This document shows positions 728 to 63,351 of a DNA stretch of 64,000 nucleotides, piece by piece. The number at the start of each line of letters is the position of its first letter. Position 1 is the first letter of the stretch. A program made the position numbers and the translations under genes. The stretch is from assembly GCA_965199495.1 (NCBI GenBank), contig CBDASK010000003.1:3328001-3392000 (forward strand), given 5' to 3'. The notes beneath the pieces are model-generated. The model worked only from the letters and a program-made list of their open reading frames with translations. It was not told the origin of the DNA and did not search any database. The DNA is from Abditibacterium sp. GTDB lineage: Bacteria > Armatimonadota > Abditibacteriia > Abditibacteriales > Abditibacteriaceae.

Positions 728-1834
728 TTGAAAATTCTTCATCTCAACGATACCGATAACTGGGCCGGAACCGAAAGTCATATTCTCGACTTGGCCACAG
801 CTTTGCGCGCGCAAGGCGACGATGCCGCCATCGCGTGCCCGCCGCATTCGCCGCTCGCGGCGCGCGCGCACGCGATTCCCGTGTTGCCGCTCGAAATCAA
901 CAAACTCATTGATCGTCGCGCGATTCAAAAATTGGCGCGCTTGCTGAAAAGCGGGCGCGCCGATGTTTTGCACGCGCACAACGGGCGCACGCAACTGCAT
1001 GGCGCTCTCGCCGTGGCTGCTGCGCGGCGCGGCACTTTAGTGTGGACGCAACATTTTATCGCGCCGCGTCATGCGCAATCGCAAGGTCGCAAAGCCGCGC
1101 TGATGAAACGCGTTCATCGCGCCGTCAATGCGCGCACGCACGGATTTATCGCGATTTCAAACGCCGTCAAATGCGCGATGATCGAACGCGGCGAAGCCTC
1201 GCTCGAACAAATTGTCGTCGTCCCCAACGGCATCGGCGATCCGCGCGCGGCGAAATTGGAAGACGCCACAATCGTGCGCGCGCGCTACGTCGTCGCGCCC
1301 GATGCGCCGCTCGTTGTTTCGCTGTGCCGTTTGGAACGCGAAAAAGATGTCGCGACGTTGCTGCGCGCGTGGGCGCGATTGGAAGTGCCGGGCGCGCGCT
1401 TGTTATTGGCGGGACGCGGCGCGCAATCCGGCGAATTGCAACGGCAAATCGAACGCGATAAATTAACCGATTCGGCGCAATTAGTTGGCTTCGTCGAGGA
1501 ACCGCTTTCGCTATTAAACGCCGCCGACGTTCTGGCGCATTCAGCGCCCGCCGAACCGTTTGGTTTGGTTTTTCTCGAAGCGATGGGTTTGGCCAAACCG
1601 ATTGTCGCCTGTCGCGGCGGCGCGGCGCCCGAAATTATCAATTCCGATTGCGGCGTCTTAATCACACATGGCGACGAAGCAGCCACGGCGACGGCATTGC
1701 GCGAATTATTGCGCGACAAAACGCGCGCTCACTCTTTGGGACGGGGCGGACGAGTGCGATTCGAGGCGCATTTCACGCGCGAACGGATGGCAGAAAACAC
1801 GTTGGAGGTTTATCGCGAGGCGCTAAAACGATGA
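728..1834 (+). CDS. Glycosyltransferase family 4 (GT-B)
   Basis: MKILHL start, DVLHAH, and EPFGLVFLEAMG (EX7E) motif; TTG start at 728 inferred within ORF 665..1834. Confidence 0.9.
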   Translation: MKILHLNDTDNWAGTESHILDLATALRAQGDDAAIACPPHSPLAARAHAIPVLPLEINKLIDRRAIQKLARLLKSGRADVLHAHNGRTQLHGALAVAAARRGTLVWTQHFIAPRHAQSQGRKAALMKRVHRAVNARTHGFIAISNAVKCAMIERGEASLEQIVVVPNGIGDPRAAKLEDATIVRARYVVAPDAPLVVSLCRLEREKDVATLLRAWARLEVPGARLLLAGRGAQSGELQRQIERDKLTDSAQLVGFVEEPLSLLNAADVLAHSAPAEPFGLVFLEAMGLAKPIVACRGGAAPEIINSDCGVLITHGDEAATATALRELLRDKTRAHSLGRGGRVRFEAHFTRERMAENTLEVYREALKR

Positions 1835-2958
1835 AAGTTTTGTTGATTTCGCACACTTGCCAGAGCCGCACCGAAGGCCAACCGCGCGCGCACGAACTGG
1901 CGAAATTGCCCGATTTAGAATTGACGCTTTTGGTGCCCGACCGCTGGAAACGTTACGGCGATTGGCGCCGCGCGCAAAGGCCAATTGATGCCGATTTTCG
2001 CTTTATCGAAGGCAAAATCATTTGGCCGTGGAGCGGGCCGGGCCAAACCTACTTGCACTGGTATCCGTCGTTGCCGTGTTTGTTAAAACAATTGCAGCCC
2101 GACGTGATAGATTTGTGGGAAGAGCCGTGGAGTTTGGTGGCGGCGCAAACTTGTTTCTGGCGCGACCGCGTTTGTCCCCACGCGAAAATTGTCGCCGAAA
2201 CTGAGCAGAATATAGATAAACAGTTGCCGCCACCCTTCGAGAATTTCCGCTCTTACGTTTTGAATAAAGCTGATTATGTCGTCGGACGCAACGCCGAATC
2301 TATCGAGATACTGCGTCGCAAAGGTTACGCTGGCCCCGCGCAAGTCGTGCCCAACGCGGTTGATGTCGAATTATTTACGCGCGACGCCAATCGCGAACGC
2401 ACGCGAAATGCGCGCAATTGGAACGATTTCGTCATCGGTTACGCCGGACGTTTGGTCGAATCAAAGGGCGTGTTCGATTTGCTCGAAGCGACCAAACAAT
2501 TGGAAAACGTGCAACTCATTTTCATCGGTGACGGCGAGGCGCGCGCCGAATTGGAAAAACGCGCGGGCAAAAGCGTTCATTTTCTGGGCGCGCAACCGTT
2601 GGAAAAATTGCCGCAATTGTTCTCGGCGCTCGATTGTCTGGTTTTGCCGTCGCGCACAACCGCCAGTTGGAAAGAACAGTTTGGCCGCGTCTTAATCGAA
2701 GCCGCGTCGTGCGGCGTTCCGGTCGTCGGCAGCGATTCGGGCGCGATTCCCCTCGTCGTCGGGCAGGGCAATAATGCGATGGGATTAATTTTTCGCGAAG
2801 GCGACGTGGCTGCACTGTCGGCGGCGCTCATTCGGTTGCAAACTGATCCTAATTTGGCGCGTAAATTGGGCGCGATTGGCGCGCGGCGCGCGCGCGATGA
2901 ATTCTCGTGGAAGTGTATGGCGGCGCGATTCGATACGATTTACCGCTCATTTTCGTAA
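1831..2958 (+). CDS. Glycosyltransferase family 4 (GT-B)
   Basis: ATG overlaps the upstream stop (ATGA); YAGRL and WKEQFGRVLIEAA motifs. Confidence 0.9.
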   Translation: MKVLLISHTCQSRTEGQPRAHELAKLPDLELTLLVPDRWKRYGDWRRAQRPIDADFRFIEGKIIWPWSGPGQTYLHWYPSLPCLLKQLQPDVIDLWEEPWSLVAAQTCFWRDRVCPHAKIVAETEQNIDKQLPPPFENFRSYVLNKADYVVGRNAESIEILRRKGYAGPAQVVPNAVDVELFTRDANRERTRNARNWNDFVIGYAGRLVESKGVFDLLEATKQLENVQLIFIGDGEARAELEKRAGKSVHFLGAQPLEKLPQLFSALDCLVLPSRTTASWKEQFGRVLIEAASCGVPVVGSDSGAIPLVVGQGNNAMGLIFREGDVAALSAALIRLQTDPNLARKLGAIGARRARDEFSWKCMAARFDTIYRSFS

Positions 2959-3288
2959 ATTGCGCCAGAGCGCACGTCCGCACAAAAAGGCTCCGACTAA
3001 ACCGATTAACAAAAGCGGGATGGAAATAATCAACAAGGATTGTCCGAATTCATTATTATGTGCGGTCAAACTCGCATAACTGAATGTCCCCGAACACGCG
3101 CCGATGCCGCCGAAAATTAATGTGCCTAAACCCAGACAAATAGAACCAAAAATCCACCCCGCGCTTTTGGTCGCCTTCAATCCCAAATTCGCGCCGCAAC
3201 GCGGGCAAAATTCGGCGCGTTCAGTCAAACCAGCGCCGCAGTTCGGGCAGGTGTAGGGCGTCGGATTGGTGACGGGCGGATTCGGCAT
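2947..3288 (-). CDS. Zinc-ribbon membrane protein
   Basis: CPNCG...FCPRCG double knuckle followed by two TM helices. Confidence 0.75.
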   Translation of the reverse strand: MPNPPVTNPTPYTCPNCGAGLTERAEFCPRCGANLGLKATKSAGWIFGSICLGLGTLIFGGIGACSGTFSYASLTAHNNEFGQSLLIISIPLLLIGLVGAFLCGRALWRNLRK

Positions 3289-3297
3289 AACTAAACA

Positions 3298-3327
3298 AAA
3301 AGCGAAGCGCAATTGCGCTTCGCTTTT
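3298..3327. terminator. Palindromic intrinsic terminator downstream of gnd
   Basis: AAAAGCGAAGCGCAATTGCGCTTCGCTTTT perfect palindrome with T-tract on the minus strand. Confidence 0.7.
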
Positions 3328-5019: not shown

Positions 5020-5967
5020 ATGAGCGCGCGCGAAAATTCTGCGAAACAAAACTCCTACGACGTTGCACCTGCGCACGACGCCGAATCGGTTTATCTCGCG
5101 CCGCAACGCGAGGTCGCGGCGCCCACCGTTTCCGAGGCCGCCGTCGCCGAAATCAAAGCCGACGCCGACGAAGCGGTTCTGCGTGCGCGCGAGCGACGCG
5201 GCGAAGAGTTCGACTTCGATCTGACGCGCGAAAGTATCGAATCGGAATTGGTTGCCGTCGCGCCGAAAACCAAATATGGTTGGGCGTGGCTGCTACTTGT
5301 GCTGGCGTTGCTCATTTGCGTTTACACCTTTGGCGCCGTGAATGGCGAAAAATCGCGGCGCCCGGTACCAATCGGCCCGTTCACCACGGCGAGCGCTCAA
5401 AACGTGACCGTTAAAGTTCAAGTCGCGGGCGCGGTGAATAAACCGGGCGTCTACGAATTGCCGTTCAACGCGCGCGTGCAGGACGCGATTCGCAAAGCGG
5501 GCGGCTTCAAGGCCGACGCCGATAAAAGCGCGCTCAACTTGGCTGATTGGGCGCAGGACGGCGCCAAAATCGAAGTGCCATCCAAAGCCGCGCCCACTCC
5601 CACAGCGACGCCGACAATAATCATCAAAGAAGTGCCCGCGCCCGTCGCGCCGTCATCAGCCACGGCGCCCGCTTCGGTGGGGGCGACAACTCAAAGCGAA
5701 AGTGCAATTCCCCTCGCGAAAACCGAATCAGGCGCGACTTCGGCCAACGCCTCGTTGGAGTATCTCAAGGCCAACCCCGTGGATTTGAACAAAGCGACGC
5801 AAGCCGAACTGGAAGTTTTGCCCGGCGTCGGCCCCAAAATGGCCGAACGAATCTTGGCGTATCGCGCCGAAAACGGCGGCTTCAAAAGCGTGGATCAATT
5901 GGACGATGTGAAAGGCATTGGCGAAAAACGCATGGCGACACTGAAACCGTTGGTCAAAGTCCGATAA
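5020..5967 (+). CDS. comEA: ComEA family competence DNA-binding protein (TM, SLBB, helix-hairpin-helix)
   Basis: VQVAGAVNKPGVYEL SLBB domain; VDLNKAT..L..LPGVGPKMAERI and VKGIGEK HhH repeats. Confidence 0.9.
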   Translation: MSARENSAKQNSYDVAPAHDAESVYLAPQREVAAPTVSEAAVAEIKADADEAVLRARERRGEEFDFDLTRESIESELVAVAPKTKYGWAWLLLVLALLICVYTFGAVNGEKSRRPVPIGPFTTASAQNVTVKVQVAGAVNKPGVYELPFNARVQDAIRKAGGFKADADKSALNLADWAQDGAKIEVPSKAAPTPTATPTIIIKEVPAPVAPSSATAPASVGATTQSESAIPLAKTESGATSANASLEYLKANPVDLNKATQAELEVLPGVGPKMAERILAYRAENGGFKSVDQLDDVKGIGEKRMATLKPLVKVR

Positions 5968-9136: not shown

Positions 9137-10071
9137 ACCGTTTTTACTTCGCTCGCCATCGCCGCTGTTGTGGGCGTCGCACTCTCCGAATTGGGCGCCG
9201 TTATTTCGCTTGATTTTGCCTTGCGCTCGCTCCACCAGATGTCGGCCAGAACCGCGATTGGCCCGACGATGAACAAGGCATAATAAGGCGCGTGGATGTT
9301 TTGGTTCAAACGCAAAACCATTTCCATCGCGGCCACGCACAGCGCCACGAACATTTGCGCTTTCTTGCCCTTTACGGTCGTCTTCGGGTCGGTGATCATA
9401 AAGAAAATGAACAACTGATACATCGGCCCGGTGATGGGCGCGACTTCCGATTGGAACGAGTGTCCGGTGATTTGGCTGCGAATCGCCGCGAACGCGATGA
9501 ACGCCAACACATAGGTCGCGCAGATGTGAAACCGTTTCAAACGCCAGACGATAACGCTGCCCAACGCCCAAATCGCCAGCATCGCCCACAGGCGATTATC
9601 CCATTGCACCGATAGCGTTGAGACCGCCCACGGCGCCAACAGCAGGATGATGGCGATGGCAAAGTTCGACGGATTCCAGATGTGGCGACCTTTGACGCGA
9701 ATCACATATTTGGAGGAGATGGCGATGGCCGCGCACAAAGCGTAGGGCCAAAATTCGGGCGAGCGCACCAAAATTCCCACGCTAATGCCCGAAATATACG
9801 CGCTCGCCAGATGTGGCCACTGGCCGCGCGTGAGGCGACTGAGAAATATCTCGGTCGCCATCGAAACCGCGATGGCGAGCAACGTTTGCGGATAAGATTC
9901 CAACACGCCGAACTGCAACTGCGCGCCCAGCAAAATGCAGGTAATCAGCACGGGCGCGACATAACGCTCGTCAATTTTAAAACGACGCGGCGCATTTTTG
10001 GGCGCGATAACATCGGGCGCACTCGCGGAAGCAGCCACGTCGCTCGCGTCGGCCAAAAAAGAAGATTGCAT
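9133..10071 (-). CDS. UnbU-like / RnfD-NqrB-like integral membrane protein
   Basis: SAYISG, SKYVIR..GRHIWNPSNF and FFMITDPKTT motifs; multiple TM helices. Confidence 0.75.
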   Translation of the reverse strand: MQSSFLADASDVAASASAPDVIAPKNAPRRFKIDERYVAPVLITCILLGAQLQFGVLESYPQTLLAIAVSMATEIFLSRLTRGQWPHLASAYISGISVGILVRSPEFWPYALCAAIAISSKYVIRVKGRHIWNPSNFAIAIILLLAPWAVSTLSVQWDNRLWAMLAIWALGSVIVWRLKRFHICATYVLAFIAFAAIRSQITGHSFQSEVAPITGPMYQLFIFFMITDPKTTVKGKKAQMFVALCVAAMEMVLRLNQNIHAPYYALFIVGPIAVLADIWWSERKAKSSEITAPNSESATPTTAAMASEVKTV

Positions 10072-12442: not shown

Positions 12443-15400
12443 CTACTCCAATCCCACGCGCATCGCGCTGCGAAACTGCTTTGTGCCGACCCAACGCGTG
12501 TGATATTTCGTCCAATCCTGCGGGTTGCGACGGTAAACCGGATCGTCTTGCAGACGGCCCGGCGGCGCATCGGTTTGTGGCAAATCGTGCGCGGGCAGGG
12601 GCAACAAAGTCGTGGAAAAAGTAGTGTTCATGTTGCCGTCTTTGGTCCAACCATCGGTAATGAACACCGTATCGCGCACAGAGTTCGCCGTCGAAAGCGC
12701 GGGCGCGTCGAATTGCAAAGTTATCTCATCGCCCGCGTTCATAATAACGTAATGGTCGTCGGTTCGCTCCAATAGCGGCTTGACATCGCCGAATCGAGTG
12801 TAGAATCCGACCAAATCGCGCCAGCGTTGGCCGGTGCCGTTGGGGACGTAACTGAGCGGCAATTCGGGCGACGCCGGGTTTTTGGCGGCGATTTCCGAAA
12901 AGCCACGATAATGCAAATCGGCCCGGCTTGGCATGAGTTTGTGCTGGACGATTTTGGCGTCGGAGCGGTCAACCGCCCAACTGATTTTGTCCCAGTAAAT
13001 TTCCAGGTTCGTCCGCAAACGCAGACGGCGTGGCGCGCCCGGCACGAACGCATTTTGCAGCGGAATCGTCATCGTTTTGAACTTGCCCGACGGGAAGCCC
13101 ATGTGCGGCTGCACCACTTTCCAGCCACCGCGCCCATCGGCGACTTCGAGCGCCAAATCGCGCGGCAAATTGCCGCCGTTTTGCGCCAACGCCACGTTGA
13201 TCGAAGAATCAGTCGGATGCAGCCAACCCTGCGCCAGCAACCACAACGGTTTATCGAGCGGCGCATTTTGGGGCAATTCGATTTCGAGCCAATGATCCGC
13301 CGTCACGCCTTGATATTGCGCGCGCCCACAATCGAGATAATCTTCGTCAAGCGCGGCAACTTTTGCCAAAACGTCGCGGCCCTTCTCGTCACGCGCGCTT
13401 TTAATCGGTTGCTCCGCCCCGGTCACCACGACTTTGAGCGGCGGCATCGGAATCGAAAAGCGCTCGTCCACCCAGACTCGCGTGTCGGCGGGATGATCAA
13501 CCGTCATCAATTTGATGTTGTCGAAATAGTGCGCTTCCCACAAATCGGCGGTCACGCGCAGGTCGTATTTGCCAGCGCGCGCTTGCAATTGATCGCCGCG
13601 CAGATGCGCCCAATCCTCGGTTTGCACCACGCCCGCCGTGTCCTGCGAGTTGATTTTGAGGCCCAAGGGCGAACGCCAATTGACATCTTTGACGAAGGCA
13701 AATTTCGTCCCATCCCACGCCCACAAATAAGGGCAAGAACCCGTCAACCGTTGAAGCGCGACGATGTCTTTGCCCGAACACAACGCGAATTCGGCCTGAC
13801 TATCGCCGTTGGGCCACAAAATCCGCAGCGCGTCGGCGCATTTCTTTTCGCCGATGCCAAAATGTGCGATGGGCCTGTCGAGCGGTTGCCGCGCGTATTG
13901 CAAAACCGCGCGCAGTTCCATCGAGCCGCCGATGCCGTAAGAGTTGATGCGCCCGTCGCCCGTCGTCTGCTTGGAGTGCGCGCGGATGTCGAGCCAGCCA
14001 TATTTGAGCGGCCCGCCGCCCATCATCTGCGCCGCCGCGCCGCGCCCGTCGGTGCCGATTAAATCGAGGCGCCCATCGTTGTTGAGGTCAGCGACATCGA
14101 ACGTCGCGAAATTGAGCGGCGCGCCCAGCGCAGTAAATTTGCCGCCGCCATTCAGCCAAATTTGCGTGCCGACGCCATTGGACGCCACGATGTCGAACTC
14201 GCCGTTATTGTCTAAATCGGCGATTAGCAATCGCGACGGCTTGTCCTTCCCAAACCCGGCATATTTGCCTTCTTCGATGGTCGTCCATTTCGTGCCATTC
14301 AAATCGGATAATTTAACGAGGTCGCCGTTATCTTTGAGGACGAGCAAATCGAAATTGCCATCGTTATCCAAATCGCCGACGGCAATGGCGGCGACCGCGC
14401 CCAAGTCTTTGGGTATAGGGCGCTCGCTGAACTTGCCCGAACGATCATTGTTCATCACATGAAGCGTGCCCGCGTCGTCTATAATTGCGGCGTCGTTGTC
14501 GCCGTCGTTATCTAAGTCGGCCCATGCCCAAGCGCGCACGCCCTTCACCGCAGCGAAAATCGGCAGCGCGCTGAACGTGTTATTGCCGTTGTTGCGCAGT
14601 TCGAGCGGACTTTGTCCCGCGCGCCCCAGCACGATATCCAAATCGCCATCGGCTTCGATGTCGGCGACGTAAGCGCCCGTATAATTGCCGCCCAAAACGT
14701 CGGGCTTGAGATTGGTTTTGGCCGTCGCATCGTTAAAACTCGCGCCCTGCGCCTGATAAAATTTGACGCCTTTGGCGCCCGCCAAAACCAAATCGGATTG
14801 GAAATCGGAATTCCAATCAATCGGCGCCATCGTCGCCGCGCCCGCAGCAGCCACGGCGCCGCCGGGAAACGAAAATTTGGCTTTGCTTCCGACCAGAGTC
14901 ACGATTTTTCCATCGTTATAAAGCGTTTGGGCGGGCGCTTTGTCCGAGGCGTAAAAGGCACGCGCCGCGCCATAAGTGCTGGGCGCTATCTTCACGGTTT
15001 GCGCGGTAAAAGTGCTTTTCAAGTCGGGCGGCGGCGCCGTGGCTTCGAGCGGCGCGAGCGCGACGAATTGGGTCAACGGCGCGCCCGGTGCGCTGGCGCC
15101 ACCCGACGAGATTTTGGCCAAATCGTCCTGGAAAGTTGGCAACGGCTTGAGCAGATTATTCAGAAAAACAATCGGCGTCGTCGCCGCGCGCGGTGTCGCG
15201 GCGGCAGCTTGCAACTCTTTCAATTGCGCGCGCGCCTCGTCGTTCCACGCGTCCGAACGCTTTTGCAGAGCGGCGATGGCGGCTTTTAAAGCGGGCGCGT
15301 CGCCGCGCTTGGCGGCCAAACGCGCCGCTTCCAACTGCGCGGCCTGATTGTCGGGTTGCGCCTTGAGAATCGCCTCGATCTGTTCGAGCGCCTTGGCATC

Positions 15401-16550: not shown

Positions 16551-18188
16551 TTACCTCGCTACTGCGTAATTATTCACACTGCGCACGCCGACAACTTTTT
16601 CCTGCGCGACACCCTGTAACGCGCGTAGTAACGCCGCCGCCGTGTCGAGCGAAGTCAGCGATGGCACGCCGTTTTCGACGGCGGCGCGACGCATTTTCAA
16701 GCCATCACGTTCGGGCGTGCGTTGGCGCTCGCTGGTATTCAGCAGAAAATCCACTTTTTGGCCGGTTAATAAATTCATCAAATTCGGCTCTTGCTCGCGA
16801 ATGCGCCGAATCACTTCGCATGGGACGCCGTGCCGCTCCAACGTGGCTGCTGTTCCACTCGTGGCGTAAATTTTATAACCCAAATCGGCGAAACCTTTGA
16901 CAATCGGCGCGCCCTCGTCTTTGGAATGATCGGCCAACGTCACCAAAAGTGCGCCCTCGCCGCGCTCTTCGTCGGGCAGGGGAATATCGTAGCCACTGGC
17001 GACCATCGCTTTATACAAAGCGCGCGCGAACGTGTTGTCCACGCCCATAATTTCGCCGGTGCTTTTCATTTCCGGCCCCAGATCGGTATCAACCAGCGCC
17101 AATTTTTGAAACGAAAAGACTGGCGCCTTGACGGCAACTTGATCGGGCGTCGGATAAAGTCCGGTTTTGTAGCCCAAGTCGGCCAACTTCTCGCCCATCA
17201 TCACGCGCGTGGCCAAATCCACCATCGGCACGCCGGTAATTTTGCTCAAATACGGAATTGTGCGCGAGGCGCGCGGGTTGACTTCGATAATATACGCCTG
17301 CTCGCCCTCAATGACGTATTGGATGTTCATCAAGCCTTTAATTTTCAGCGCGACGGCGACGCGAATCGCGTAATCGGTGATTTGGTCAATCAAGTTTTGG
17401 CTGAGCGATTGCGGCGGATAAACCGCCATCGAATCGCCCGAATGCACGCCCGCGCGCTCGATATGCTCCATGATGCCCGGCAACAAACAGGTTTCGCCGT
17501 CGCAAATCACGTCCACTTCGGCCTCTTTGCCGGTGATATATTTGTCCACCAAAATCGGCTTTTCCGGCGTGACTTCGGTTGAGGTGCGCATATAACTGCG
17601 CAAATCAGTTTCGTTATAAACGATTTCCATCGCGCGCCCGCCCAAAACATACGAAGGCCGCACCAGAACCGGATAACCGATTTCGGTCGCGACGCCGACG
17701 GCGGCGTCCAAAGTCGTCACGGCTTTGCCGTTGGGTTTGGGAATGCCTAATTTAATCAACAAACCATCGAAACGGTCGCGGTCTTCGGCCAGATCAATCG
17801 AATCGAATTGCGTGCCCAAAATCGGCACGCCCGCGCGGTCAAGCGGCCCGGCCAAGTTAATCGCGGTTTGTCCGCCGAATTGCGTGACGACTCCCAGTGG
17901 CTGCTCGCGGTCAATGATATTGAGAACGTCTTCGAGCGTGAGCGGCTCGAAATAGAGGCGGTCGGAAATATCGAAATCGGTCGAGACGGTTTCGGGATTG
18001 TTGTTGATAACAATCGCCTGATAGCCCAACTCGCGAATGGCGCGCGTGCAGTGAACCGAGGCGTAATCGAACTCGATGCCTTGGCCGATTCGGATCGGGC
18101 CGGAGCCGAGAATGATGACCTTGGGACGCGCATCGGGCAGCGGCGCGTTGGAAGCGGGAGTGAAACCAGAAGTGGAAGCGACTTGCAT
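16551..18188 (-). CDS. carB: Carbamoyl-phosphate synthase large subunit, C-terminal half only (split CarB)
   Basis: Starts at LGSGPIRIGQGIEFDY; RPSYVLGG, HIERAGVHSGDS, EVNPRASRT and GPEMKSTGE motifs plus MGS domain; 545 aa. Confidence 0.92.
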   Translation of the reverse strand: MQVASTSGFTPASNAPLPDARPKVIILGSGPIRIGQGIEFDYASVHCTRAIRELGYQAIVINNNPETVSTDFDISDRLYFEPLTLEDVLNIIDREQPLGVVTQFGGQTAINLAGPLDRAGVPILGTQFDSIDLAEDRDRFDGLLIKLGIPKPNGKAVTTLDAAVGVATEIGYPVLVRPSYVLGGRAMEIVYNETDLRSYMRTSTEVTPEKPILVDKYITGKEAEVDVICDGETCLLPGIMEHIERAGVHSGDSMAVYPPQSLSQNLIDQITDYAIRVAVALKIKGLMNIQYVIEGEQAYIIEVNPRASRTIPYLSKITGVPMVDLATRVMMGEKLADLGYKTGLYPTPDQVAVKAPVFSFQKLALVDTDLGPEMKSTGEIMGVDNTFARALYKAMVASGYDIPLPDEERGEGALLVTLADHSKDEGAPIVKGFADLGYKIYATSGTAATLERHGVPCEVIRRIREQEPNLMNLLTGQKVDFLLNTSERQRTPERDGLKMRRAAVENGVPSLTSLDTAAALLRALQGVAQEKVVGVRSVNNYAVAR

Positions 18189-18301: not shown

Positions 18302-18419
18302 TGGTTCAGTTCTTAAGGGGAAGCCCTTGGGAACCACAACTTAATTTAGCCGTCAATTCGCGATTTTCACTTTGGTGAAACAAGAATTAATGGCACAAAC
18401 GCAGGAGAAACACAGACGC

Positions 18420-18650
18420 ATGGCAAAAGGCACAGTAAAATGGTTTAACGACGCCAAAGGATTTGGCTTCATCGAGCAGGAGAGCGGTGGCGAAGACGTT
18501 TTCGTTCACTACTCCACGATTCAGACGGACGGTTACCGCAGTCTCAAAGAAGGCCAAAAGGTCGACTATGAGGTTGAGGGTGCCGACAAAGGTCTGCGCG
18601 CGGTCAACGTGCGCGCCACTTCCGACGAAGCGGTTCCCGCGATGAGCTAA
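18420..18650 (+). CDS. cspA: Cold-shock protein
   Basis: [15 protein letters not shown] (RNP1) and DVFVHYS (RNP2). Confidence 0.95.
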
Positions 18651-18700
18651 TCATCCAAAAATTCGTTCGTCCTGAACTTATTTGTTGATTCATAACCAAC

Positions 18701-18742
18701 AAACGCCCGCCCCGAATTGCAAAATTCGGGGCGGGCGTTTTT
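18701..18742 (+). terminator. Intrinsic terminator
   Basis: AAACGCCCGCCCCGAATT-gcaa-AATTCGGGGCGGGCGTTTTT. Confidence 0.85.
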
Positions 18743-18747
18743 GTAAA

Positions 18748-18776: not shown

Positions 18777-18784
18777 ACCATTCG

Positions 18785-19449: not shown

Positions 19450-19473
19450 AAGCGCCATACTTTCCAGCGAATT

Positions 19474-46605: not shown

Positions 46606-46686
46606 CGGAAAACTTGGGTTTGACCCCTGATATTGTGGCATAGTTTGGCTGATAATTAAAAGAGTGCGTTTGCACAAACCGTTATA

Positions 46687-47373
46687 ATGGCCACATCTCG
46701 TCCCACTCCCCAACAAGTTTTGACCGATTTGCCGCTCGATGCGGCGCGCGAAGCCACTTGGCAGGGCTTCAAAGATGCGGGCGTGAAATCGCCGGTGATT
46801 GACGGCGAGCAAAGCGTCGTCGTCGGCACCACGGGCGACGGCGTTTTGCAGGCGGCGCGCGGCGTGCGCGCGACTTTCAGCGCCGAAATGGGCGGCACTT
46901 TAATTTCGCTCGAATCCAAACCGATCATGGGCGGCGTCATCGAAGCGCGCCGCGTCAAGCTCAAGCAAGCCGCCAAAGTCGCCGACGCGGTCGAAAAAGT
47001 CATCGAGCGCGGTTGGGAACGGCGCCCGACTTCGCACGAAATGGGCGCTCCCATGCCCGCAATGCCCGCGCCCATCGCAGCGCCCGGCGCGCCCGTGGCT
47101 GCTATGACCGGCGACCCATTTTATGGTCAGGTTTTACCGCACAAACAGGGCACGACTCTCATCATTTACGGCGTGCTGGGCCTGTTTTGCTGTCAAATTC
47201 TGGCGCCCTTTACATGGTATTATTGCAATGTCGCGCTCAGAAGTTACGGTGACATCGATCCAGGCGACAAAAGTTTGGTGAAAGTCGCGCGTATTTTGGG
47301 AATTATCGGTTGCCTGTTTTTGATAGGACGTATCGCGCTATTGGTCATCGGTAATAATCAACAAATTCGCTGA
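46687..47373 (+). CDS. Hypothetical protein with DUF4190-like C-terminal TM hairpin
   Basis: GVLGLFCC..ILAP and ARILGIIG pattern. Confidence 0.6.
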   Translation: MATSRPTPQQVLTDLPLDAAREATWQGFKDAGVKSPVIDGEQSVVVGTTGDGVLQAARGVRATFSAEMGGTLISLESKPIMGGVIEARRVKLKQAAKVADAVEKVIERGWERRPTSHEMGAPMPAMPAPIAAPGAPVAAMTGDPFYGQVLPHKQGTTLIIYGVLGLFCCQILAPFTWYYCNVALRSYGDIDPGDKSLVKVARILGIIGCLFLIGRIALLVIGNNQQIR

Positions 47374-50868: not shown

Positions 50869-52308
50869 TTGAATTCTTCTCTTTCGCCCGCGCCGCAAAA
50901 GCGCATTGGGCCGCTTATTCTCGCTCTGGCTTTCGGTTGGTGGCTGGCGGGCGCGTTTCAAATTTTTCTCTTGGGTTGGGTTGCGACGGCGCCCTTATGG
51001 CTTTTGGTCACCGATTTACCAACGCGACAGCGCGCGCGGTTGGGTTATGTCGCGGGCTTTGTTTCGTTCTGGCTCATCAATTGGTGGCTGGTGCCGACAA
51101 TAACCAATGGCGCCGCCGCTATCGGCGCTTCGCCATTGCTGGGCTTTGTTTTGTCCCTCGTCGCCGTCACTTTTATCGCGGCGGTTCACGGACTGCAACC
51201 GATGATTTGCGCGATTTTGGCGCGCGGCAAAAGTTGGTGGACGCCGTGGCTGTTAGCGGCGGCGTGGACATTTTTGGACTACTTGCGCGATCAAGGGCCG
51301 CTCCGCCATTCGTGGGGCGCGCTGGGTTTCACGCAGACGACCGACGCATTATTGCTACGCGGTTCGCCGGTTATCGGCCAGCATGGATTAACGTTTTTAT
51401 GCGCCTTCATCGGCGCGTGTGCGGCGTTGTGGTGGATGTCGCGCCAACGGATTTTCGCGGCGATGCCGGTTGGCGTTTTGGTTTTGTGGCACGCGGTTGG
51501 TTTGTTACCGCGCCCCATTTTATTCCCAGCGCTTGGGCCGACGCAAAATGTGCGCGTTTTGATCGTGCAAACCTACGTTTCGAGTCTGGGCAAAAACGGT
51601 GGCAACGGGCCGTTTCCGCAAGCGCTGAAGTTGACACGGGACGCGACGCGCAATCAGAAATACGATTTGATTTTGTGGCCGGAAACCACGATTGAACTGC
51701 GCAAAGCGGGCGACGGGTTTTATAGTGGTTCCGACTTGGCGCAGTGGCAATTGTTTGGGCCGAAAATTCCGCTCCTGACGGGCGCGCGCGCGACTTCGAC
51801 CGATGGCACCGAACGCAACGAAGCCGTTTTACTGATGCCTGACGGCAGCGCGCAGGGTTACGCAAAAACGCGATTGGTGCCGTTTGGCGAGCGCCCGCCG
51901 TTTGTGGAATGGTTGCCGTTTTTGGCTAATTTTGCGCCTCATCCGCTTATCGAACGCGGCGATGGGCCGAAAACTTTGTCGTTGCCGCTCGACGGCGAGC
52001 GCGATAGCAGCCACGCCGTTGGGATCAATCCGGCGATCTGTTTCGAGAGTTGTTTTCCGCTCTGGCTCGATGGCAAAAGCGCCGGTTTCAACGCGATTTT
52101 AACGAACGATGAATGGTTCGGTTGGACGGAAGCGCCGCGCCAACACCGGGCGATGGCGCAACTGCGCGCGGTCGAAACGGGTAGGCCCGTGATTCAAAGT
52201 TGCAACGGGCGCTACTCGTTTTATATCGGCGCAGACGGTAAGATATTAGCGACGACTCAAGGCAATGCCGCTCAAACGCTCGATGTGACGATTCCAGTTG
52301 CGCGATAG
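50869..52308 (+). CDS. lnt: Apolipoprotein N-acyltransferase
   Basis: WPET, YAK..LVPFGE, ICFES and TNDEWFG..QH..MA.LRAVE motifs. Confidence 0.93.
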   Translation: MNSSLSPAPQKRIGPLILALAFGWWLAGAFQIFLLGWVATAPLWLLVTDLPTRQRARLGYVAGFVSFWLINWWLVPTITNGAAAIGASPLLGFVLSLVAVTFIAAVHGLQPMICAILARGKSWWTPWLLAAAWTFLDYLRDQGPLRHSWGALGFTQTTDALLLRGSPVIGQHGLTFLCAFIGACAALWWMSRQRIFAAMPVGVLVLWHAVGLLPRPILFPALGPTQNVRVLIVQTYVSSLGKNGGNGPFPQALKLTRDATRNQKYDLILWPETTIELRKAGDGFYSGSDLAQWQLFGPKIPLLTGARATSTDGTERNEAVLLMPDGSAQGYAKTRLVPFGERPPFVEWLPFLANFAPHPLIERGDGPKTLSLPLDGERDSSHAVGINPAICFESCFPLWLDGKSAGFNAILTNDEWFGWTEAPRQHRAMAQLRAVETGRPVIQSCNGRYSFYIGADGKILATTQGNAAQTLDVTIPVAR

Positions 52309-54827: not shown

Positions 54828-56411
54828 GTGAATCCAAACTTCCTCGTTGGGGTTGTTGTTATATTGTTGGTCGGAATAGGGGCGGGCGCGATTTTCTTCG
54901 CCAATTTGCTGCGCGGTGCGAACCAGCGCGCCAGCGCTTTAGTCGAAGAAAATCATCGGGAATCTGAGCGTGAAAACGAACGCAAAAGCGCCGAACTGCA
55001 AAGCGAACTGGCGCGCCGTCAGGCCGAACTCAAACTCGAAGCGCGCGAAGAAATTCAACGCGAAGTCGCTCGTCTGCGCGACGCGATGGAAACCGAAACC
55101 GCCGAGCGTCGCGCGGAGATTAAAGAATCCGAAACGCGTCTGCGCGAGCGCGAAACGCGTTTAGACCGGCGCATCAAAGAAATTGAAGGCCGCGACAAAA
55201 AATTGGGCGAGCGCGCCGTGCAACTCGAAAGCAAAATCAGCGAGGCCGACGAACTTATCGCGCAGCGCCACGGCGAGTTGGAGCGCGTGGCTCGTCTTTC
55301 CGAGGGCGAGGCCAAAGAATTGTTGCTGCAACGCGTCGAGGATGAAACGCGCGAGGCGATGTCGAGCGTTGTGCTGCGCATCGAAGAAGAGATGCGCGAC
55401 CGCGCCGAAGAGCGCGCCCGCAAACTTCTGGTGATGGCGATGCACCGTTGCGCCGTTGACCAGACCAGCGAAAGCGCGGTTTCGGTCGTGCCTCTCCCGA
55501 CCGAAGACCTCAAAGGTCGCATCATCGGGCGCGAGGGCCGCAACATTCGCACGTTCGAGCAATTGTCGGGCACCGATTTGATCATTGACGATACGCCCGA
55601 AGCGGTCATGGTTTCGTGCTTTGATCCGGTGCGCCGCGAAATCGCGCGCACGGCGCTGGCCGATTTGGTCTCCGATGGGCGCATTCATCCGGCGCGCATC
55701 GAAGAAGTTCTGGCGCGCGCCAAAGGCGAAATCGCCGTCAAAATGCGCGAGGCCGCCGAGCGCGCCTGCAACGATGCCAACGTGCGTTTGCCCAAGCCGA
55801 TCATGGAGGTCGTCGGGCGTTTGCTGTATCGCACTTCGTATGGTCAGAATATTTTGTGGCACTCGGTCGAGATGGCGAAAATCGCCGCGACCATCGCCGT
55901 CGAAGTCGGCGCCGACGTGAACGTCGCCAAGCGCGGCGCGTTTTTGCACGACATCGGCAAAGCTCTGGATCACGACCACGAAGGCAGCCACGTCGCGCTG
56001 GGCGTGGAACTGATGAAGCGCCATCGCGAGAGCGACGCGGTCATTCGCGCGGCGGGCGAGCATCATCACGATGTCGCCGAAATGTCAAGTCTGGAAGCGG
56101 TCATCGTGCAAATCGCCGATATGATGTCGGGGTCGCGTCCCGGCGCGCGCCGCGAAAACGTCGAAATTTACGTCAAGCGTCTGGCCGAACTGGAAAAAAT
56201 CGCCGATAGTTTTGAGGGCGTCGAGAAATCCTACGCGATTCAGGCGGGCCGCGAGGTGCGCATCGTCGTCAAGCCCGAACGCGTGGATGATTTGGCCGCG
56301 CTCCGTCTGGCCCGCGACGTGGCTCGTCGCGTGCAGGACGAAATGACCTATCCCGGCGAGATTAAAATCACCGTCATCCGCGAAACGCGCGCCTCGGAAA
56401 TCGCGCATTAG
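54828..56411 (+). CDS. rny: Ribonuclease Y
   Basis: N-terminal TM and coiled coil; KGRIIGREGRNIR (KH); RTSYGQN; LHDIGKA (HD); SRPGARRE; AIQAGRE. Confidence 0.98.
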   Translation: MNPNFLVGVVVILLVGIGAGAIFFANLLRGANQRASALVEENHRESERENERKSAELQSELARRQAELKLEAREEIQREVARLRDAMETETAERRAEIKESETRLRERETRLDRRIKEIEGRDKKLGERAVQLESKISEADELIAQRHGELERVARLSEGEAKELLLQRVEDETREAMSSVVLRIEEEMRDRAEERARKLLVMAMHRCAVDQTSESAVSVVPLPTEDLKGRIIGREGRNIRTFEQLSGTDLIIDDTPEAVMVSCFDPVRREIARTALADLVSDGRIHPARIEEVLARAKGEIAVKMREAAERACNDANVRLPKPIMEVVGRLLYRTSYGQNILWHSVEMAKIAATIAVEVGADVNVAKRGAFLHDIGKALDHDHEGSHVALGVELMKRHRESDAVIRAAGEHHHDVAEMSSLEAVIVQIADMMSGSRPGARRENVEIYVKRLAELEKIADSFEGVEKSYAIQAGREVRIVVKPERVDDLAALRLARDVARRVQDEMTYPGEIKITVIRETRASEIAH

Positions 56412-56413
56412 TC

Positions 56414-57046: not shown

Positions 57047-57673
57047 ATGAATCTCAACTTAAAAAATTCTCTCGTTATTTTCTGCGGCTTCTCGCTGGCG
57101 ACGGCAGCAGCCACGGCGGCTTATGGTCAAGGCCCGGTGCTGCCCATCGAGCCGATGCCAGCCGCCGCAACCGCCAAGAACACCGTATCGGCCATTGACT
57201 TGACAACGCAGGCCGAAATCAATGAACGTGAGTATTTGCGCCGCGCCGCCGGATTGACGGCGCTGCATGGCCCCGGCATTGTCGTGACTTTGCGCGACCG
57301 CAAAGGCATCAAAAGCAAGGACGCGTCCCAGTCCATTCCCGGCTTGGTTCACGATTACGATTTATCTGCCGTCGTCAATCAATTGCGCGCCGCCGATGCC
57401 GAAGCTATCGCGATTAACGGCATACGCGTGGGCAGCCAGACCGCTATCACCGTGTCCGGCTCTTCGATTTATATCGGCGGACAAAGAATTGGCAACCCAT
57501 TTGAAATCGAGGCCATCGGCGATGCGGGCCAGATGAAAAACAGGCTGGAGGCGTCGGGAATCGCAAGCGAACTCAAAAATGTTGGCCCCTACATCAGCGT
57601 GGCGACTTCCAAAAACCTGCGCGTGCCTGCGCTCAAAGAAGCGCCCCAGTTTCGCTTTGGCAAGCCGGAATAA
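57047..57673 (+). CDS. DUF881-domain exported protein
   Basis: AGLTAL.GPGIVVTLRD; VHDYDL..VVNQL.AA.AEAIAING.R; PFEIEAIGD. Confidence 0.85.
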   Translation: MNLNLKNSLVIFCGFSLATAAATAAYGQGPVLPIEPMPAAATAKNTVSAIDLTTQAEINEREYLRRAAGLTALHGPGIVVTLRDRKGIKSKDASQSIPGLVHDYDLSAVVNQLRAADAEAIAINGIRVGSQTAITVSGSSIYIGGQRIGNPFEIEAIGDAGQMKNRLEASGIASELKNVGPYISVATSKNLRVPALKEAPQFRFGKPE

Positions 57674-60938: not shown

Positions 60939-61850
60939 ATGTCTCTTGAAATTTCTTTCACGAAAATGCACGGCTCCGGCAACGATCACATCATGATTGA
61001 TTGCATCAATAACCCGATGCCGCCCGAAAACATTATGCCCGAACTGGCCAAGCGCTCCTGCGCTCGCAATTTTGGCGTGGGCGCCGACGGCCTGATTCTG
61101 ATTATGGAAGACGAAGAGGGCGACGCTGATTATCGCATGAGAATGTGGAATCCCGACGGTTCCGAAGCCGAAATGTGCGGCAACGGCATTCGTTGTTTCG
61201 CCAAATATCTCTTCGACCAAGGCATAATCGAGGCGCGCCCAATTTCGGTCGCGACAGAACAGGGTTTGCAGAGCATCGAAATCGTCGGCGGTCAGAATCG
61301 CAATGCGTCCTCGACGCAGGTGCGCGTGGATATGGGCGCGCCGCGTTTGTTGCGCTCGCAGATTCCGATGGCTTTGCACGAGGGAAATGGCGGCGACGGG
61401 CGCATCGTGGATTATCCGCTCGATGTCAATGGCGAGACTTTTCGCATCACGGCGGTTTCGATGGGCAACCCGCACGTCGTGATTTTCGTGGACGATGTCG
61501 AAACCGTGCCGCTCAAAGAAATCGGTTTGGAAATCGAGCATCACCATGATTTTCCCCAGCGCACCAACGTCCATTTCGTGCAAATGATGGGGCCACGCAA
61601 ACTGTGGGTGCGCCACTGGGAACGCGGCGCGGGCGATACTCTGGCGTGCGGAACCGGCGCCTGCGCGTGCGTCGTGGCTGCTGCGCTGAACAGCAAACTG
61701 CCCGAAGGCGACCGCAGCGCGATGACGCATCTGCCCGGCGGCGACCTCAACATCGAATGGGCGGGCAACGACCACGTTTATATGACCGGCCCCGCCAAAA
61801 CCGTGTTTTCCGGCACGTTGAGCCGCGAGTTCCTCAAAGGTTTGATTTAA
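60939..61850 (+). CDS. dapF: Diaminopimelate epimerase
   Basis: FTKMHGSGND, NPDGSEAEMCGNGIRC, MGNPH and ERGAG.TLACGTGA motifs. Confidence 0.98.
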   Translation: MSLEISFTKMHGSGNDHIMIDCINNPMPPENIMPELAKRSCARNFGVGADGLILIMEDEEGDADYRMRMWNPDGSEAEMCGNGIRCFAKYLFDQGIIEARPISVATEQGLQSIEIVGGQNRNASSTQVRVDMGAPRLLRSQIPMALHEGNGGDGRIVDYPLDVNGETFRITAVSMGNPHVVIFVDDVETVPLKEIGLEIEHHHDFPQRTNVHFVQMMGPRKLWVRHWERGAGDTLACGTGACACVVAAALNSKLPEGDRSAMTHLPGGDLNIEWAGNDHVYMTGPAKTVFSGTLSREFLKGLI

Positions 61851-61861
61851 CTGGGAGCATC

Positions 61862-62218
61862 ATGCCAATTTTAGCCACCGAAGTTGCTGAACCCGCCATC
61901 CAGACGGGCACCCAATTTTCGCCCGAAATTTTCTCTGACGAGGACGTGAATTTGGATAAGCCGTGGAATGTCGTTTTGCTCGACGACGACAATCATTCTT
62001 ACGAATATGTCATCGAAATGCTGGGCGTTTTATTTGGTTACGCGATTGACAAAGCCTATCTCATGGCGTGCGAAGTGGACGAAGAAAAACGCGTCATCGT
62101 GTGGACGGGCCATCGTGAAATCGCCGAACTCAAGCAGGAACAAATTCACGAATATGGCCCCGATTGGCGTATGGTCAGCGAGGGTTCGATGAGCGCCGTT
62201 TTGCAACAAGCGCGCTAA
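61862..62218 (+). CDS. clpS: ATP-dependent Clp protease adaptor ClpS
   Basis: WNVVLLDDDNHSYEYVIEML..F and E.AE.K motifs. Confidence 0.85.
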   Translation: MPILATEVAEPAIQTGTQFSPEIFSDEDVNLDKPWNVVLLDDDNHSYEYVIEMLGVLFGYAIDKAYLMACEVDEEKRVIVWTGHREIAELKQEQIHEYGPDWRMVSEGSMSAVLQQAR

Positions 62219-62286
62219 TTTCGGTTGAGAACCTTCAAAGTTAAGGCGCGCAATCGGCGAAAATTTCGCGTGGGCTTGGCGATTGC

Positions 62287-63351
62287 GTGAAATTCATAAG
62301 CATGTCATCGCTGCCTTTAATTTTACTGATTCTCATTTTTGTCGGCGCGGCGGTCGGCGTCTGGTTCGCGGGCATTCGTTTGTCGCAGGCGACCGACGTG
62401 TTGAGCAAAAAATATGGCTTGGGCCAAGCATTAGGCGGCCTGATTTTGCTGGCGTTCGCCACCAACTTGCCCGAAATCGCCATCACCGCGAGCGGCGCGC
62501 TTAAAGGCGATGTCGGCATTGCCGTCGGCAATATTCTGGGCGGCATTGCGCTGCAAACCGTGGTTTTAGTGGCGCTCGATGTTTTCGGAATGGGCAAAAA
62601 AATCGGCCTGACTTATAGCGCGTCATCGCTCGAACTGGTTATCGAAGGCGTCGCCGTCATCGCGATTTTGACGGCGACGGTGATGTCCACGCAATTGCCG
62701 TCGTCATTGATTTTCGCGCGCGTCACGCCGGGCGGATTGTCAATTGTCGCGTTGTGGATCGCCGGTTTGTGGCTGGTCAATCACGCTCGCACCGGTTTGC
62801 CCTGGCAAGACAAAGGCGACGCGCCCGGTGGACAGGACACTCCGGGCGGTGGCGAGAAAGCTAAACACAAGCCCAAACTCAAGCCCGACAAAGCGTTGTG
62901 GGTTTTTGGCCTCGGCGCCGTTGTGACTTTGATTTGTGGCGTCTTGCTCGAAACTTCGGGCGACGCCATCGCCAAACATTGGGGCATGAGCGGCGTATTG
63001 TTTGGCGCGACAGTGCTGGCCGCAGCCACGTCGCTGCCCGAACTCTCGACAGGGCTGGCTTCGATGAAATTGGGCGACCATAAATTAGCGATCAGCGATA
63101 TTTTCGGCGGCAACGCGTTTTTGCCCACGCTCTTTTTGCTGGCAACGCTATTATCGGGCAAAGCCGTTTTGCCACACGCCCATAAAACCGATATTTATCT
63201 GACTGGTTTGGGAATGCTCTTAACGTCGATTTACATCGTCGGCTTAATTTTTCGGCCCAAAAAACAGATCGCGCGCATGGGCATAGATTCGCTCGCGGTT
63301 TTGATTGTTTACGCCATCGGCATCGTCGGGTTATTCGCGATTGGAAATTAA
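62287..63351 (+). CDS. Sodium:calcium antiporter (CaCA family)
   Basis: ATNLPE and ATSLPE alpha repeats; GNILGG and DIFGGN. Confidence 0.9.
   Translation: MKFISMSSLPLILLILIFVGAAVGVWFAGIRLSQATDVLSKKYGLGQALGGLILLAFATNLPEIAITASGALKGDVGIAVGNILGGIALQTVVLVALDVFGMGKKIGLTYSASSLELVIEGVAVIAILTATVMSTQLPSSLIFARVTPGGLSIVALWIAGLWLVNHARTGLPWQDKGDAPGGQDTPGGGEKAKHKPKLKPDKALWVFGLGAVVTLICGVLLETSGDAIAKHWGMSGVLFGATVLAAATSLPELSTGLASMKLGDHKLAISDIFGGNAFLPTLFLLATLLSGKAVLPHAHKTDIYLTGLGMLLTSIYIVGLIFRPKKQIARMGIDSLAVLIVYAIGIVGLFAIGN

Follow-up and report, generated by a model that had tools for sequence, protein, structure and literature searches.

To our knowledge, sequence-specific self-DNA tags are established in only two proteobacterial families, and the function of another iterated word, HIP1, has been an open question for three decades. 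The DUS of the Neisseriaceae and the USS of the Pasteurellaceae are asymmetric words of 9-13 bp, which occur on both strands at hundreds of copies per Mb, show no replichore bias, originate by point mutation, make use of permissive codons and are scarce in acquired DNA. Their dialects follow phylogeny, as described for the DUS of Neisseriaceae (PMC3630211), and their hosts possess an intact type IV pilus/ComEC machinery. In all these points they are like the word described here. Chi and the Chi-like sites of AddAB share with it an asymmetric, GT-rich sequence and an apparent orientation dependence. HIP1 and the alternative cyanobacterial HIPs resemble it in their density of about one copy per 1-3 kb, their occurrence in genes and spacers and the use of other words in some lineages, as far as reported in PMC4390886 and PMC5861425; two further reports link HIP1 to transformation (10.1101/2024.09.10.611283, PMC13756078).

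The stretch of DNA analyzed here (the window) comprises 64 kb of an Abditibacterium-like genome (G000). The original prediction of 24 exact copies of the 9-mer CGTGGCTGC, 12 per strand, was reproduced at every position, compared to 0.72 copies expected and a maximum of 3 in 100 dinucleotide shuffles. Near-matches are frequent as well, with 60 sites carrying one mismatch (23.3 expected). The window is typical of the chromosome, since 24.1 copies would be expected at the chromosome mean. The copies are read in different frames and encode the different peptides that had been claimed (VAA, AAT, AWL, QPR and SH). A glycosyltransferase gene contains one copy read as AVAA (1012-1020, plus strand) and one read as AAT (1679-1687, minus), the copy within comEA is read as AWLL (5285-5293, plus), a convergent pair in a single gene (38726-38770) as AVAA (38726, plus) and PQPR (38762, minus), and the copies in lnt and in the RNase Y gene as SSHA (52007-52015, minus) and GSHV (55984-55992, minus). 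AAT is also encoded at 16842-16850 (carB half gene), 22044-22052 and 23183-23191 on the plus strand and at 29697-29705, 33649-33657, 39927-39935, 57107-57115 and 63022-63030 on the minus strand. DVAA is found at 2805-2813 (plus), 10031-10039 (minus) and 40547-40555 (plus), AVAA at 14847-14855 (minus), RVAA at 27690-27698 (plus), PVAA at 47094-47102 (plus) and VVAA at 61673-61681 (plus, dapF).

The flanks are biased to the predicted extent (CG at -3/-2 in 16 of 24 copies, T at +1 in 13 of 24); genome-wide, the extended consensus is CG[CGA]CGTGGCTGC[TA] with the core CGTGGCTG. Two blocks that had been named as free of exact copies indeed contain none: 18400-21500, with no core 8-mer, a GC content of 0.515 and PIN toxin-like and prepilin-like genes, and 41300-47000, with a single core 8-mer and genes without a curated family match. 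The caveat that all copies lie within coding sequences holds for the window (24 of 24 in called genes) but not for the whole genome, where 163 of 1,780 copies are intergenic and about 90% (1,608) intragenic.

In total, the genome comprises 1,783 copies of CGTGGCTGC (864 and 919 by strand). An order-4 Markov model expects 130 copies and an order-5 model 496, resulting in a 3.6-fold excess over the latter. The enrichment also survives codon-preserving shuffling: genes contain 1,610 copies compared to 96.5 +/- 12.4 in synonymous-codon shuffles, a 17-fold excess. It is present in each of the six reading frames and shows no bias with respect to the gene strand (837 sense, 773 antisense), and the density is lower in intergenic (204 per Mb) than in genic DNA (410 per Mb). 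No report of this word was found in literature searches. A by-product of codon use or composition would agree with the finding that the two commonest frames encode the common peptides VAA and AAT, and the frequency of Chi in E. coli has been reported to follow from codon use (10.1101/2021.07.08.451572). Against this stand the 17-fold excess, which places the word, unlike Chi, far above codon expectation, and the alanine codons used, GCT and GCA, which account for only 10% and 6% of alanine codons in G000, in line with the claimed departure from codon preference. Furthermore, ten other members of the genus hold only 28-79 copies each.

The word arose by point substitution. Between G000 and its relative G011, 158 word sites aligned without gaps; another 13 had gaps or lay at the edge of the alignment. 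Of the in-frame VA sites, G011 kept 51 of 75 at word positions compared to 55 of 173 at non-word positions (p=1.6e-7). Compared to the more distant G004, such sites were no better kept (18 of 84, control 52 of 199), and with outgroups 1 word site was in common among 46-77 aligned. The codons of the word fall at poorly conserved residues. Core and accessory DNA differ strongly in density: the chromosome holds 0.65 core 8-mers per kb, whereas plasmids and islands hold 0.09-0.31 per kb. The lowest value was determined for the two small replicons (8 core 8-mers, 58 expected); the islands range from 0.17 to 0.31 per kb, including a 137-kb island at comM (0.21) and a 30-kb island (0.17).

Within the genus, the word is carried by 3 of 13 members (G000, G011 and G004), which are monophyletic with a support of 100/100. 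The comparison of sister genomes revealed two dialects that follow phylogeny within this one clade, that of G000/G011 and that of G004, with 1,855 copies of its own dialect in G004 compared to 10 and 5 in the other two. The G004 dialect contains the Chi-like GCTGGTG, half of its copies are intergenic and many form inverted pairs; the longest start with GTAG and form intergenic inverted doublets. In sister genera, seven genomes show unrelated words (AGTACT-centred palindromes and AGTACGGTCGA). Six of these genomes, including G020 and G014, have palindromic words, and G017 has a word found mostly as T-tailed inverted pairs. Altogether, there are three or more unrelated word types in the family, each limited to part of it. 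The intergenic inverted pairs of G004 and G017 are again like DUS/USS, and the true palindromes of G020, G014 and relatives are like HIP1. Unlike DUS/USS, the word is 90% intragenic in G000 and confined to some members of a genus, and unrelated words, some of them palindromic, occur inside one family.

The GTAG start of the G004 copies resembles the feet of REP elements. Long intergenic copies, inverted doublets and this start are features in common with REP/REPIN and their RAYT transposases, and they would suit nick or transfer-origin sites, possibly REP-derived, at which an HUH nuclease or relaxase mobilizes chromosomal single strands. Nick sites are moreover asymmetric and strand-specific, and Y1 transposase-family genes were found in 4 of 5 genomes tested. 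This explanation is nevertheless very unlikely. Unlike REP/REPIN, the word of G000 is intragenic (1,608 of 1,780 copies), substitution-derived and without an internal hairpin, and the REP-like families of G000 are different sequences. At 11 Y1-family loci examined, the word does not flank the gene and 0-3 core 8-mers are present at each, G017 lacks a Y1 match, and strong and weak sites showed no robust 5'/3' asymmetry (67 vs 53 pairs pooled).

A newly recognized property of the word is its spacing. At distances of 60-500 bp, only 134 of 557 pairs in G000 are in the same orientation (278 expected). The exclusion between same-orientation copies spans about 0.8 kb, the observed/expected ratio rising with distance from 0.10 via 0.25, 0.33, 0.66 and 0.87 to 1.03, whereas opposite-orientation copies show none (ratio about 1). 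In a 450-kb gonococcal sample, the sole DUS/USS control, 57 of 117 pairs at 60-500 bp are in the same and 60 in the opposite orientation, which differs from the word (p=2.5e-7). The word is thus no plain DUS, and since USS uptake was also reported to be independent of orientation (PMC1939737), the known systems behave differently. Avoidance of direct repeats does not account for the exclusion: none of 7 control 8-mers showed a lack of same-orientation pairs at 60-500 bp, direct repeats in general are more numerous than inverted ones, and variants with only the core in common exclude each other as well (1 pair below 500 bp, observed/expected 0-0.05). Together with the shuffles and the low counts in relatives, these findings refute a by-product of codon use, composition or repeat avoidance, to which we assign practically no probability. 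In a toy model, same-strand-only exclusion arises under per-strand saturation, but not under per-molecule or additive rules. Accordingly, the word seems to be counted per strand, which limits the mechanism to a step that is single-stranded or directional. Spacing is also seen for the palindromes of G020 (clear) and G014 (weak), which serve both strands at once. As a signature, per-strand exclusion can be measured, and its calculation is applicable to every other iterated word.

The word is evenly spaced over the whole chromosome and conserved, as would suit a binding site of a nucleoid, segregation or replication protein under direct selection; for HIP1, periodicity has been argued to reflect a structural role (PMC5861425). 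A double-stranded architectural site, however, needs no separate spacing per strand, and the word shows no ori/ter zonation and little polarity. Depending on whether the arms are drawn by GC skew or by KOPS, 50.4% or 53.5% (p=0.004) of copies are co-oriented with replication, the latter a slight remaining bias, compared to 71-78% for the KOPS control (78% with KOPS-drawn arms). Since the word was also gained within one genus, with a sister lineage lacking it, such a site is highly improbable.

The main rival is a Chi-like stop for double-strand-break processing, at which a nuclease running from the break halts as soon as it meets a word in the right orientation. For two-ended breaks, as caused by desiccation or radiation, the two orientations would be equally necessary, and redundancy would be confined to neighbours of the same orientation. 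Depletion in the same orientation with opposite pairs near 1 is a direct prediction of this model, which fits the per-strand exclusion equally well, and a Chi-like role has been proposed for HIP1 (10.1101/2024.09.10.611283). The reader would be an end-processing enzyme other than AddAB. An AddAB-like pair is present in 10 of 10 word-less members of the genus but in 0 of 3 carriers, and is absent from all genomes of other genera. No AddA/AddB orthologue was found in G000 by tblastn with four queries against the whole genome (95% complete), and RecBCD is missing in both word-clade genomes tested. Conversely, a DNA2/Bad-like nuclease-helicase, in which four cysteines are invariant, occurs in 3 of 3 carriers and in 0 of the 10 others, and also in the word-bearing G017.

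Several observations make a Chi-like stop unlikely. RecC was found in none of the 5 word genomes tested, each of which has one UvrD above the cut-off, so that there is no classical Chi reader. AddAB was lost once, on a single branch, and neither AddAB nor a word is present in six of the genomes sampled. Possession of the Bad-like gene does not suffice for the word: L368, from a sister lineage and 83% identical, shows no core 8-mer over 24.2 kb where 15.8 would be expected, no word was detected in G016 despite its having the gene, and of 43 homologue loci at least 9 kb long, a single one showed a strong word. The six AGTACT genomes yielded no copy of the gene. Finally, only 50-53% of copies are oriented with replication, unlike the leading-strand polarity of known Chi sites, for which 75-90% have been reported (10.1101/2021.07.08.451572).

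Another explanation, quite unlikely in our assessment, is a methylation-linked mark modelled on HIP1 or on the methylation-dependent uptake of Campylobacter, in which an orphan methylase modifies one strand, or both strands of palindromes, and the methyl group is recognized in repair or uptake. Methylation of an asymmetric site on one strand is inherently strand-specific, the sister-genus words include the classic methylase-type palindromes AGTACT, TCGA and TGCA, and MutL was found in 5 of 5 genomes tested. HIPs have been linked to cognate methylases, with a mismatch-repair range of about 1 kb cited (PMC4390886). The word differs from HIP1 by its asymmetric CGTGGCTG core, and no methylase tracking it was found in a comparison of two families, PF01555 and PF00145. 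PF01555 groups are common to word-bearing and word-less genomes (27 genomes; the tree took 23 of 30 loci, none of them from the three CGTGGCTG genomes), and the sole PF01555 match of G014 falls in a family-wide group. Judged from lengths and scores only, no C5 methylase (PF00145, 5 genomes) is visibly specific to the three carriers. The consensus of 12-13 bp is graded and long for a methylase site; the usual sites are shorter.

With a probability of about 0.5, we regard the word as a DUS-like self tag that was built up via transformation and is read on single strands or directionally. Word-bearing DNA would be favoured in natural transformation and recombination, so that a lineage-specific self-DNA tag accumulates by point mutation through molecular drive, as modelled for DUS and USS. 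Within about 0.8 kb, little would be gained from another copy on the same strand, and a copy on the opposite strand would have its full effect. Counting per strand implies that the favoured step works on a single strand or is directional in its scanning; candidate steps are the selection of the strand that enters via ComEC, or the stage at which the incoming single strand is protected and loaded with RecA. The predicted DUS-like role fits the dialects, the substitution origin, the depletion in mobile DNA and the intergenic inverted pairs in relatives, but finds no support in the same-strand exclusion or in the two genes in the window cited in its favour. ComEA (5020-5967, plus), an ordinary protein with membrane anchor, SLBB and helix-hairpin-helix, is conserved in word-less relatives as well and therefore provides no evidence for an uptake tag. 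The prepilin-like gene (20624-21415, plus) encodes a DUF1559-type protein with about ten paralogues and no tie to the word.

ComEC, DprA, ComEA, ComM, the type IV pilus operon and the secretins are intact in the word genome; comM is split in the word-bearing G020. Since ComEC (27 of 27 genomes), DprA (25 of 27) and ComEA (26 of 27) are equally present in word-less relatives, the machinery so far does not explain the distribution of the word. All 12 loci read have kept the minor-pilin operon, whether or not the word is present, and for the fast-evolving pilin of 618 aa the matches were limited to the generic pilin fold (Z up to 6.5, over 60-100 residues). Among the loci compared, no receptor tracking the word and, in contrast to DUS/USS, no ComP/ComN-like receptor was identified. 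As the word types are limited to parts of the family and word-less relatives exist, a putative reader should be findable by comparing the approximately 27 genomes. For this family of soil and surface bacteria, about which little is known, the close word-less relatives are natural controls; transformation of these bacteria may require such a word, which is also a sharp binning marker.

More tentatively, a self-DNA signal of a third kind, distinct from both DUS and Chi, may have evolved repeatedly in the Abditibacteriaceae; it would be read single-stranded or directionally and require one copy per strand every 1-3 kb. This could be provided by separate copies in G000, by inverted doublets in G004 and G017 and by palindromes in six genomes. 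If true, DUS-like and HIP1-like words would be united under one mechanism, arising in lineages without AddAB/RecBCD. In G000 itself, inverted pairs of CGTGGCTGC at 10-20 bp are in excess genome-wide, and just 18 close inverted pairs touch intergenic DNA. An example in the window is the divergent pair within cysS (36251-36273), in which a minus-strand copy at 36251, read as AAT, is followed by a plus-strand copy at 36265, read as DVAA.

The asymmetric 9-mer CGTGGCTGC, in the following termed the word, occurs in 24 exact copies in the window, 12 on each strand, compared to 0.72 in dinucleotide shuffles, and the reading frames, flank biases and copy-free blocks originally described for it were all confirmed. 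In the whole genome (G000, 4.81 Mb, comprising a chromosome of 4.72 Mb and two small replicons) 1,783 copies were counted, 864 on the plus and 919 on the minus strand. The RNase Y of G000 has its best named matches, at 93%, 81% and 69-73% identity, among proteins labelled Abditibacteriales or Abditibacterium, and G000 is accordingly assigned to the latter genus. The word was the top over-represented 9-mer, with expected numbers of 130 (order-4 Markov model) and 496 (order-5), while orders above 5 absorb the word itself. Its consensus reads CG[CGA]CGTGGCTGC[TA], and the core 8-mer CGTGGCTG is present in 3,083 copies on the chromosome. Based on our own gene calls (3,832 genes, 83% coding), 1,610 genic copies compare to 96.5 ± 12.4 in 20 synonymous-codon shuffles, the observed and shuffled numbers in the six frames being 34/5.5, 124/20.8, 679/27.1, 554/13.8, 159/25.7 and 60/3.8, with a balance of 837 sense and 773 antisense copies. 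Alongside these numbers, the probability of a compositional artefact is negligible. The location of all copies within coding sequences, as stated in the original prediction, holds true for the window, but not for the genome, where 163 of 1,780 copies are intergenic, at half the coding density.

The expected lack of replichore polarity was reproduced with arms defined by GC skew (898 of 1,780 copies). With arms drawn by eye from KOPS, 952 of 1,780 copies (53.5%, p=0.004) were polarised, compared to 78% for KOPS itself. Accordingly, the word shows a slight replichore bias, far below that of Chi or KOPS. A preference for core over accessory DNA was likewise borne out, as the core 8-mer reaches 0.65/kb on the chromosome versus 0.09/kb on the small replicons; values of 0.21/kb and 0.17/kb were determined for a 137-kb island at comM and a 30-kb island, and 0.31/kb for a prophage-like region. 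The word is absent from a CRISPR array with 131 repeats that lies next to cas-like genes (G000:C3:2766480-2775011, C3 being the chromosomal contig). GTAG is the foot of REP elements. The chromosome also holds two families of REP-like sequences that bear no relation to the word, of GTAGAGACACC-type (157 copies) and TCATTCTGAG-type (123 copies), which are frequently paired at a distance of 50-200 bp.

Among the relatives, high counts were found in G011 (1,411) and G004 (972), compared to 28-79 in 10 other members of the genus and 52-176 in 14 other genomes of the family. The three carriers form one clade with a support of 100/100 in a single-gene tree of RNase Y from 24 genomes, three genomes with incomplete matches being omitted. 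The anticipated sister-genome variants exist: G004 comprises a longer dialect, GRACGTGGCTGGT, with 1,855 copies versus 10 and 5, and of the 257 cores sampled in it, 126 lie between genes, often in outward-facing pairs 16-47 bp apart. De novo scans came up without a comparable word for G012, G009, G006 and G010 (190-200 kb each), G023 (100 kb) and G013, G015, G016, G019 and G041 (56-80 kb each). Unrelated words were obtained for G020 (palindrome TCGAGTACTCGA), G014 (palindrome GCAAGTACTTGC) and G017 (AGTACGGTCGA), the latter with 2,412 copies versus 1-5 in four other genomes and mostly in T-tailed inverted pairs. Altogether, 10 of the 27 genomes of the family contain a word, 10 sampled ones contain none and 7 lie outside the de novo scans. 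Inverted doublets and palindromes are what a per-strand need would favour, and on this basis we treat the words of the whole family as a putative single phenomenon; a search of viral contigs for the inverted-pair pattern gave no match.

For RAGTACTY, 2,695-4,371 copies were counted in 6 of 31 genomes of the class and 0-396 in the others. Five of the nine sites in G005 lie within a 5-kb stretch of its contig C98, which is possibly mis-binned or recently acquired. GTAC, on which the iterated words of the sister genera are centred, is strongly avoided in the G000 chromosome (observed/expected 0.11) and in the G023 sample (3 copies per 100 kb). On a metagenome contig (L392:1-22661), 22 AGTACT sites were found at even spacing, most of them in the form CAAGTACTTG known from G014, and since its proteins are only 38-61% identical to those of G000, the AGTACT word may extend beyond the family.

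The age and origin of the word can be approached by comparison with relatives. L368, a contig from metagenome data that represents a sister lineage, contains no core 8-mer in 24 kb, compared to 15.8 expected, at a four-fold synonymous identity to G000 of 0.68, the same as for G004. This absence at a G004-like divergence indicates that the gain of the word is recent. In codon alignments with G011, 158 word sites were gapless (102 identical) and 13 gapped or at an edge, and four word-less relatives each share 1 site out of 46 to 77 aligned. The word arises by substitution, not by insertion. In-frame VA sites with the word were kept in G011 in 51 of 75 cases versus 55 of 173 for VA sites without it, while no conservation excess was found against G004 (18/84 versus 52/199 controls). 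Against G004, 42 of 180 word sites were identical, and conversely 43 of 91 G004 sites were shared. The residues under word codons are less conserved, showing 45-53% identity to outgroups compared to 63-66% overall.

A newly recognised property of the word is the spacing of its copies. Same-orientation core pairs showed observed/expected ratios of 0.10 below 60 bp, 0.25 at 60-200 bp and 0.33 at 200-500 bp, rising to 0.66 (0.5-1 kb), 0.87 (1-1.5 kb) and 1.03 (1.5-2 kb), whereas convergent and divergent pairs remained at 0.87-1.14 beyond 60 bp and were over-represented at 10-20 bp. An exponential fit yielded an exclusion length of 760 ± 90 bp. At 60-500 bp, 134 of 557 pairs were of the same orientation, compared to 278 ± 12 (lowest value 234) when the labels were permuted 2,000 times. 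The exclusion is present inside genes (86 same versus 311) and between genes (48 versus 112), acts also across variants that have only the core in common, fades as the variants weaken, and was found again in G011 (8 versus 27) and weakly in G004 (13 versus 27). Avoidance of direct repeats does not account for it, since generic direct repeats exceed inverted ones and none of seven control 8-mers showed same-orientation depletion at 60-500 bp. In a toy model with parameters set by hand, saturation per strand gives the observed pattern, while saturation per molecule depletes both classes and an additive effect depletes neither. The depletion of same-orientation pairs only, together with this model, leads us to infer a mode of action that is single-stranded or directional. 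No directionality was found for weak sites 5' versus 3' of strong ones (67 versus 53 over four pooled classes; 19 versus 6 in one class), and synonymous divergence was flat on both sides.

In its genomic anatomy the word resembles the uptake words of Neisseriaceae (DUS) and Pasteurellaceae (USS). Orientation-independence, as expected of uptake words, is however not given: the control, a 450-kb gonococcal stretch with 382 DUS representing these systems alone, showed 57 same versus 60 opposite pairs (p=2.5e-7 against G000). Since this independence is lacking and uptake and receptor are putative, the word is not classed as DUS/USS despite its DUS-like anatomy. The record L214 (NZ_CP119142.1), filed as a plasmid of 2.17 Mb, contains enolase together with 1,962 DUS and has the appearance of an entire gonococcal chromosome. 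HIP1 is palindromic, and the asymmetry of the word in G000 separates the two. The comparison draws on published work (PMC1939737, PMC7811141, 10.1101/2025.10.24.684340, PMC4390886, PMC3630211, PMC5861425, 10.1101/2021.07.08.451572, PMC12378983, 10.1101/2024.09.10.611283, PMC13756078, PMC2346458). Searches of largely open-access literature, supplements with possible k-mer surveys aside, gave no account of the G000 word, of any iterated word from Abditibacterium or of an exclusion between copies on the same strand.

With a probability of about one half, the word is a DUS-like self tag, which would be spread by transformation and read separately on each strand. Competence genes are common among the 27 genomes (ComEC 27, DprA 25, ComEA 26, PilD 25), and G000 has intact ORFs for all four, secretins, a full comM and a pilB-pilT-pilC-pilD-minor-pilin operon, named partly by our own reading of the sequences. 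No competence gene examined separates carriers from non-carriers. ComEA was rejected as reader, being ordinary and similar with and without the word (16 of 23 loci gave sequence for alignment). The minor pilins do not stand out as reader either, since all 12 loci examined have the same operon. A 618-aa minor pilin diverges fastest (42% identity to G004 versus 85% for PilD). Its model (mean pLDDT 64) was without Foldseek matches at E<=0.001, with VIA-align it matched generic pilins only and in the Atlas unnamed pilin clusters only, a result neutral with regard to a role as reader. Behind the minor pilins lie two large pilus-associated genes that nearly duplicate each other (1,291 and 1,328 aa, G000:C3:872853-880963). 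Outside the window, at G000:C3:1119400-1256700, an intact comM (515 aa) precedes three tandem islands in which the word is scarce, each ending with a copy of the comM 3' part (85-95% identical). In G020 comM is split by ~29 kb, and G012 carries many comM 3' fragments.

A Chi-like stop for a putative repair enzyme is a possible but unlikely alternative. An AddAB-like pair occurs in each of the 10 members of the genus that lack the word, but in no other genome of the family, and within the genus a DNA2/Bad-like gene mirrors it, taking its place on one branch. The encoded nuclease-helicase (1,421 aa, PD-(D/E)XK and SF1B, G000:C3:4111365-4115630, minus strand) has DNA2 as its nearest solved structure and contains four invariant cysteines, a feature described for Bad (PMC7430649); its 22 close homologues (64-100%, query counted) form a tight clade. 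As a sufficient reader it was rejected, since it tracks the word within the genus but fails on L368 and G016. Its homologue loci speak against this role in 42 of 43 long cases (80 fetched), in a scan that is weak at G000 word strength (4 of 5 positive 20-kb controls, scores near noise). Outside the genus, AddAB loss does not predict the word either, as G013, G015, G016, G019, G023 and G041 lack both. G000 contains no AddAB orthologue, no RecC and one UvrD, and with neither cognate enzyme nor polarity the word is not Chi. A methylation-linked mark is rather doubtful; methylases of PF01555 (27 genomes) and PF00145 (5 genomes) do not follow the word. Nick or transfer sites are improbable, with Y1 transposases not tracking it, and an architectural site is very improbable. 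Compared to these, the reading as a self tag taken up by transformation is preferred.

Besides the word, the window contains a stand-alone second half of carB (545 aa, 16551-18188), a toxin-like gene of the PIN family next to a small gene inside a word-free block (18785-19449), a secY outside a ribosomal operon (27996-29423), a sigma factor of SigB/F type that is extended by ~200 aa at its C-terminus (30904-32382) and, ahead of cysS, a gene for a four-helix-bundle protein (34638-35021).
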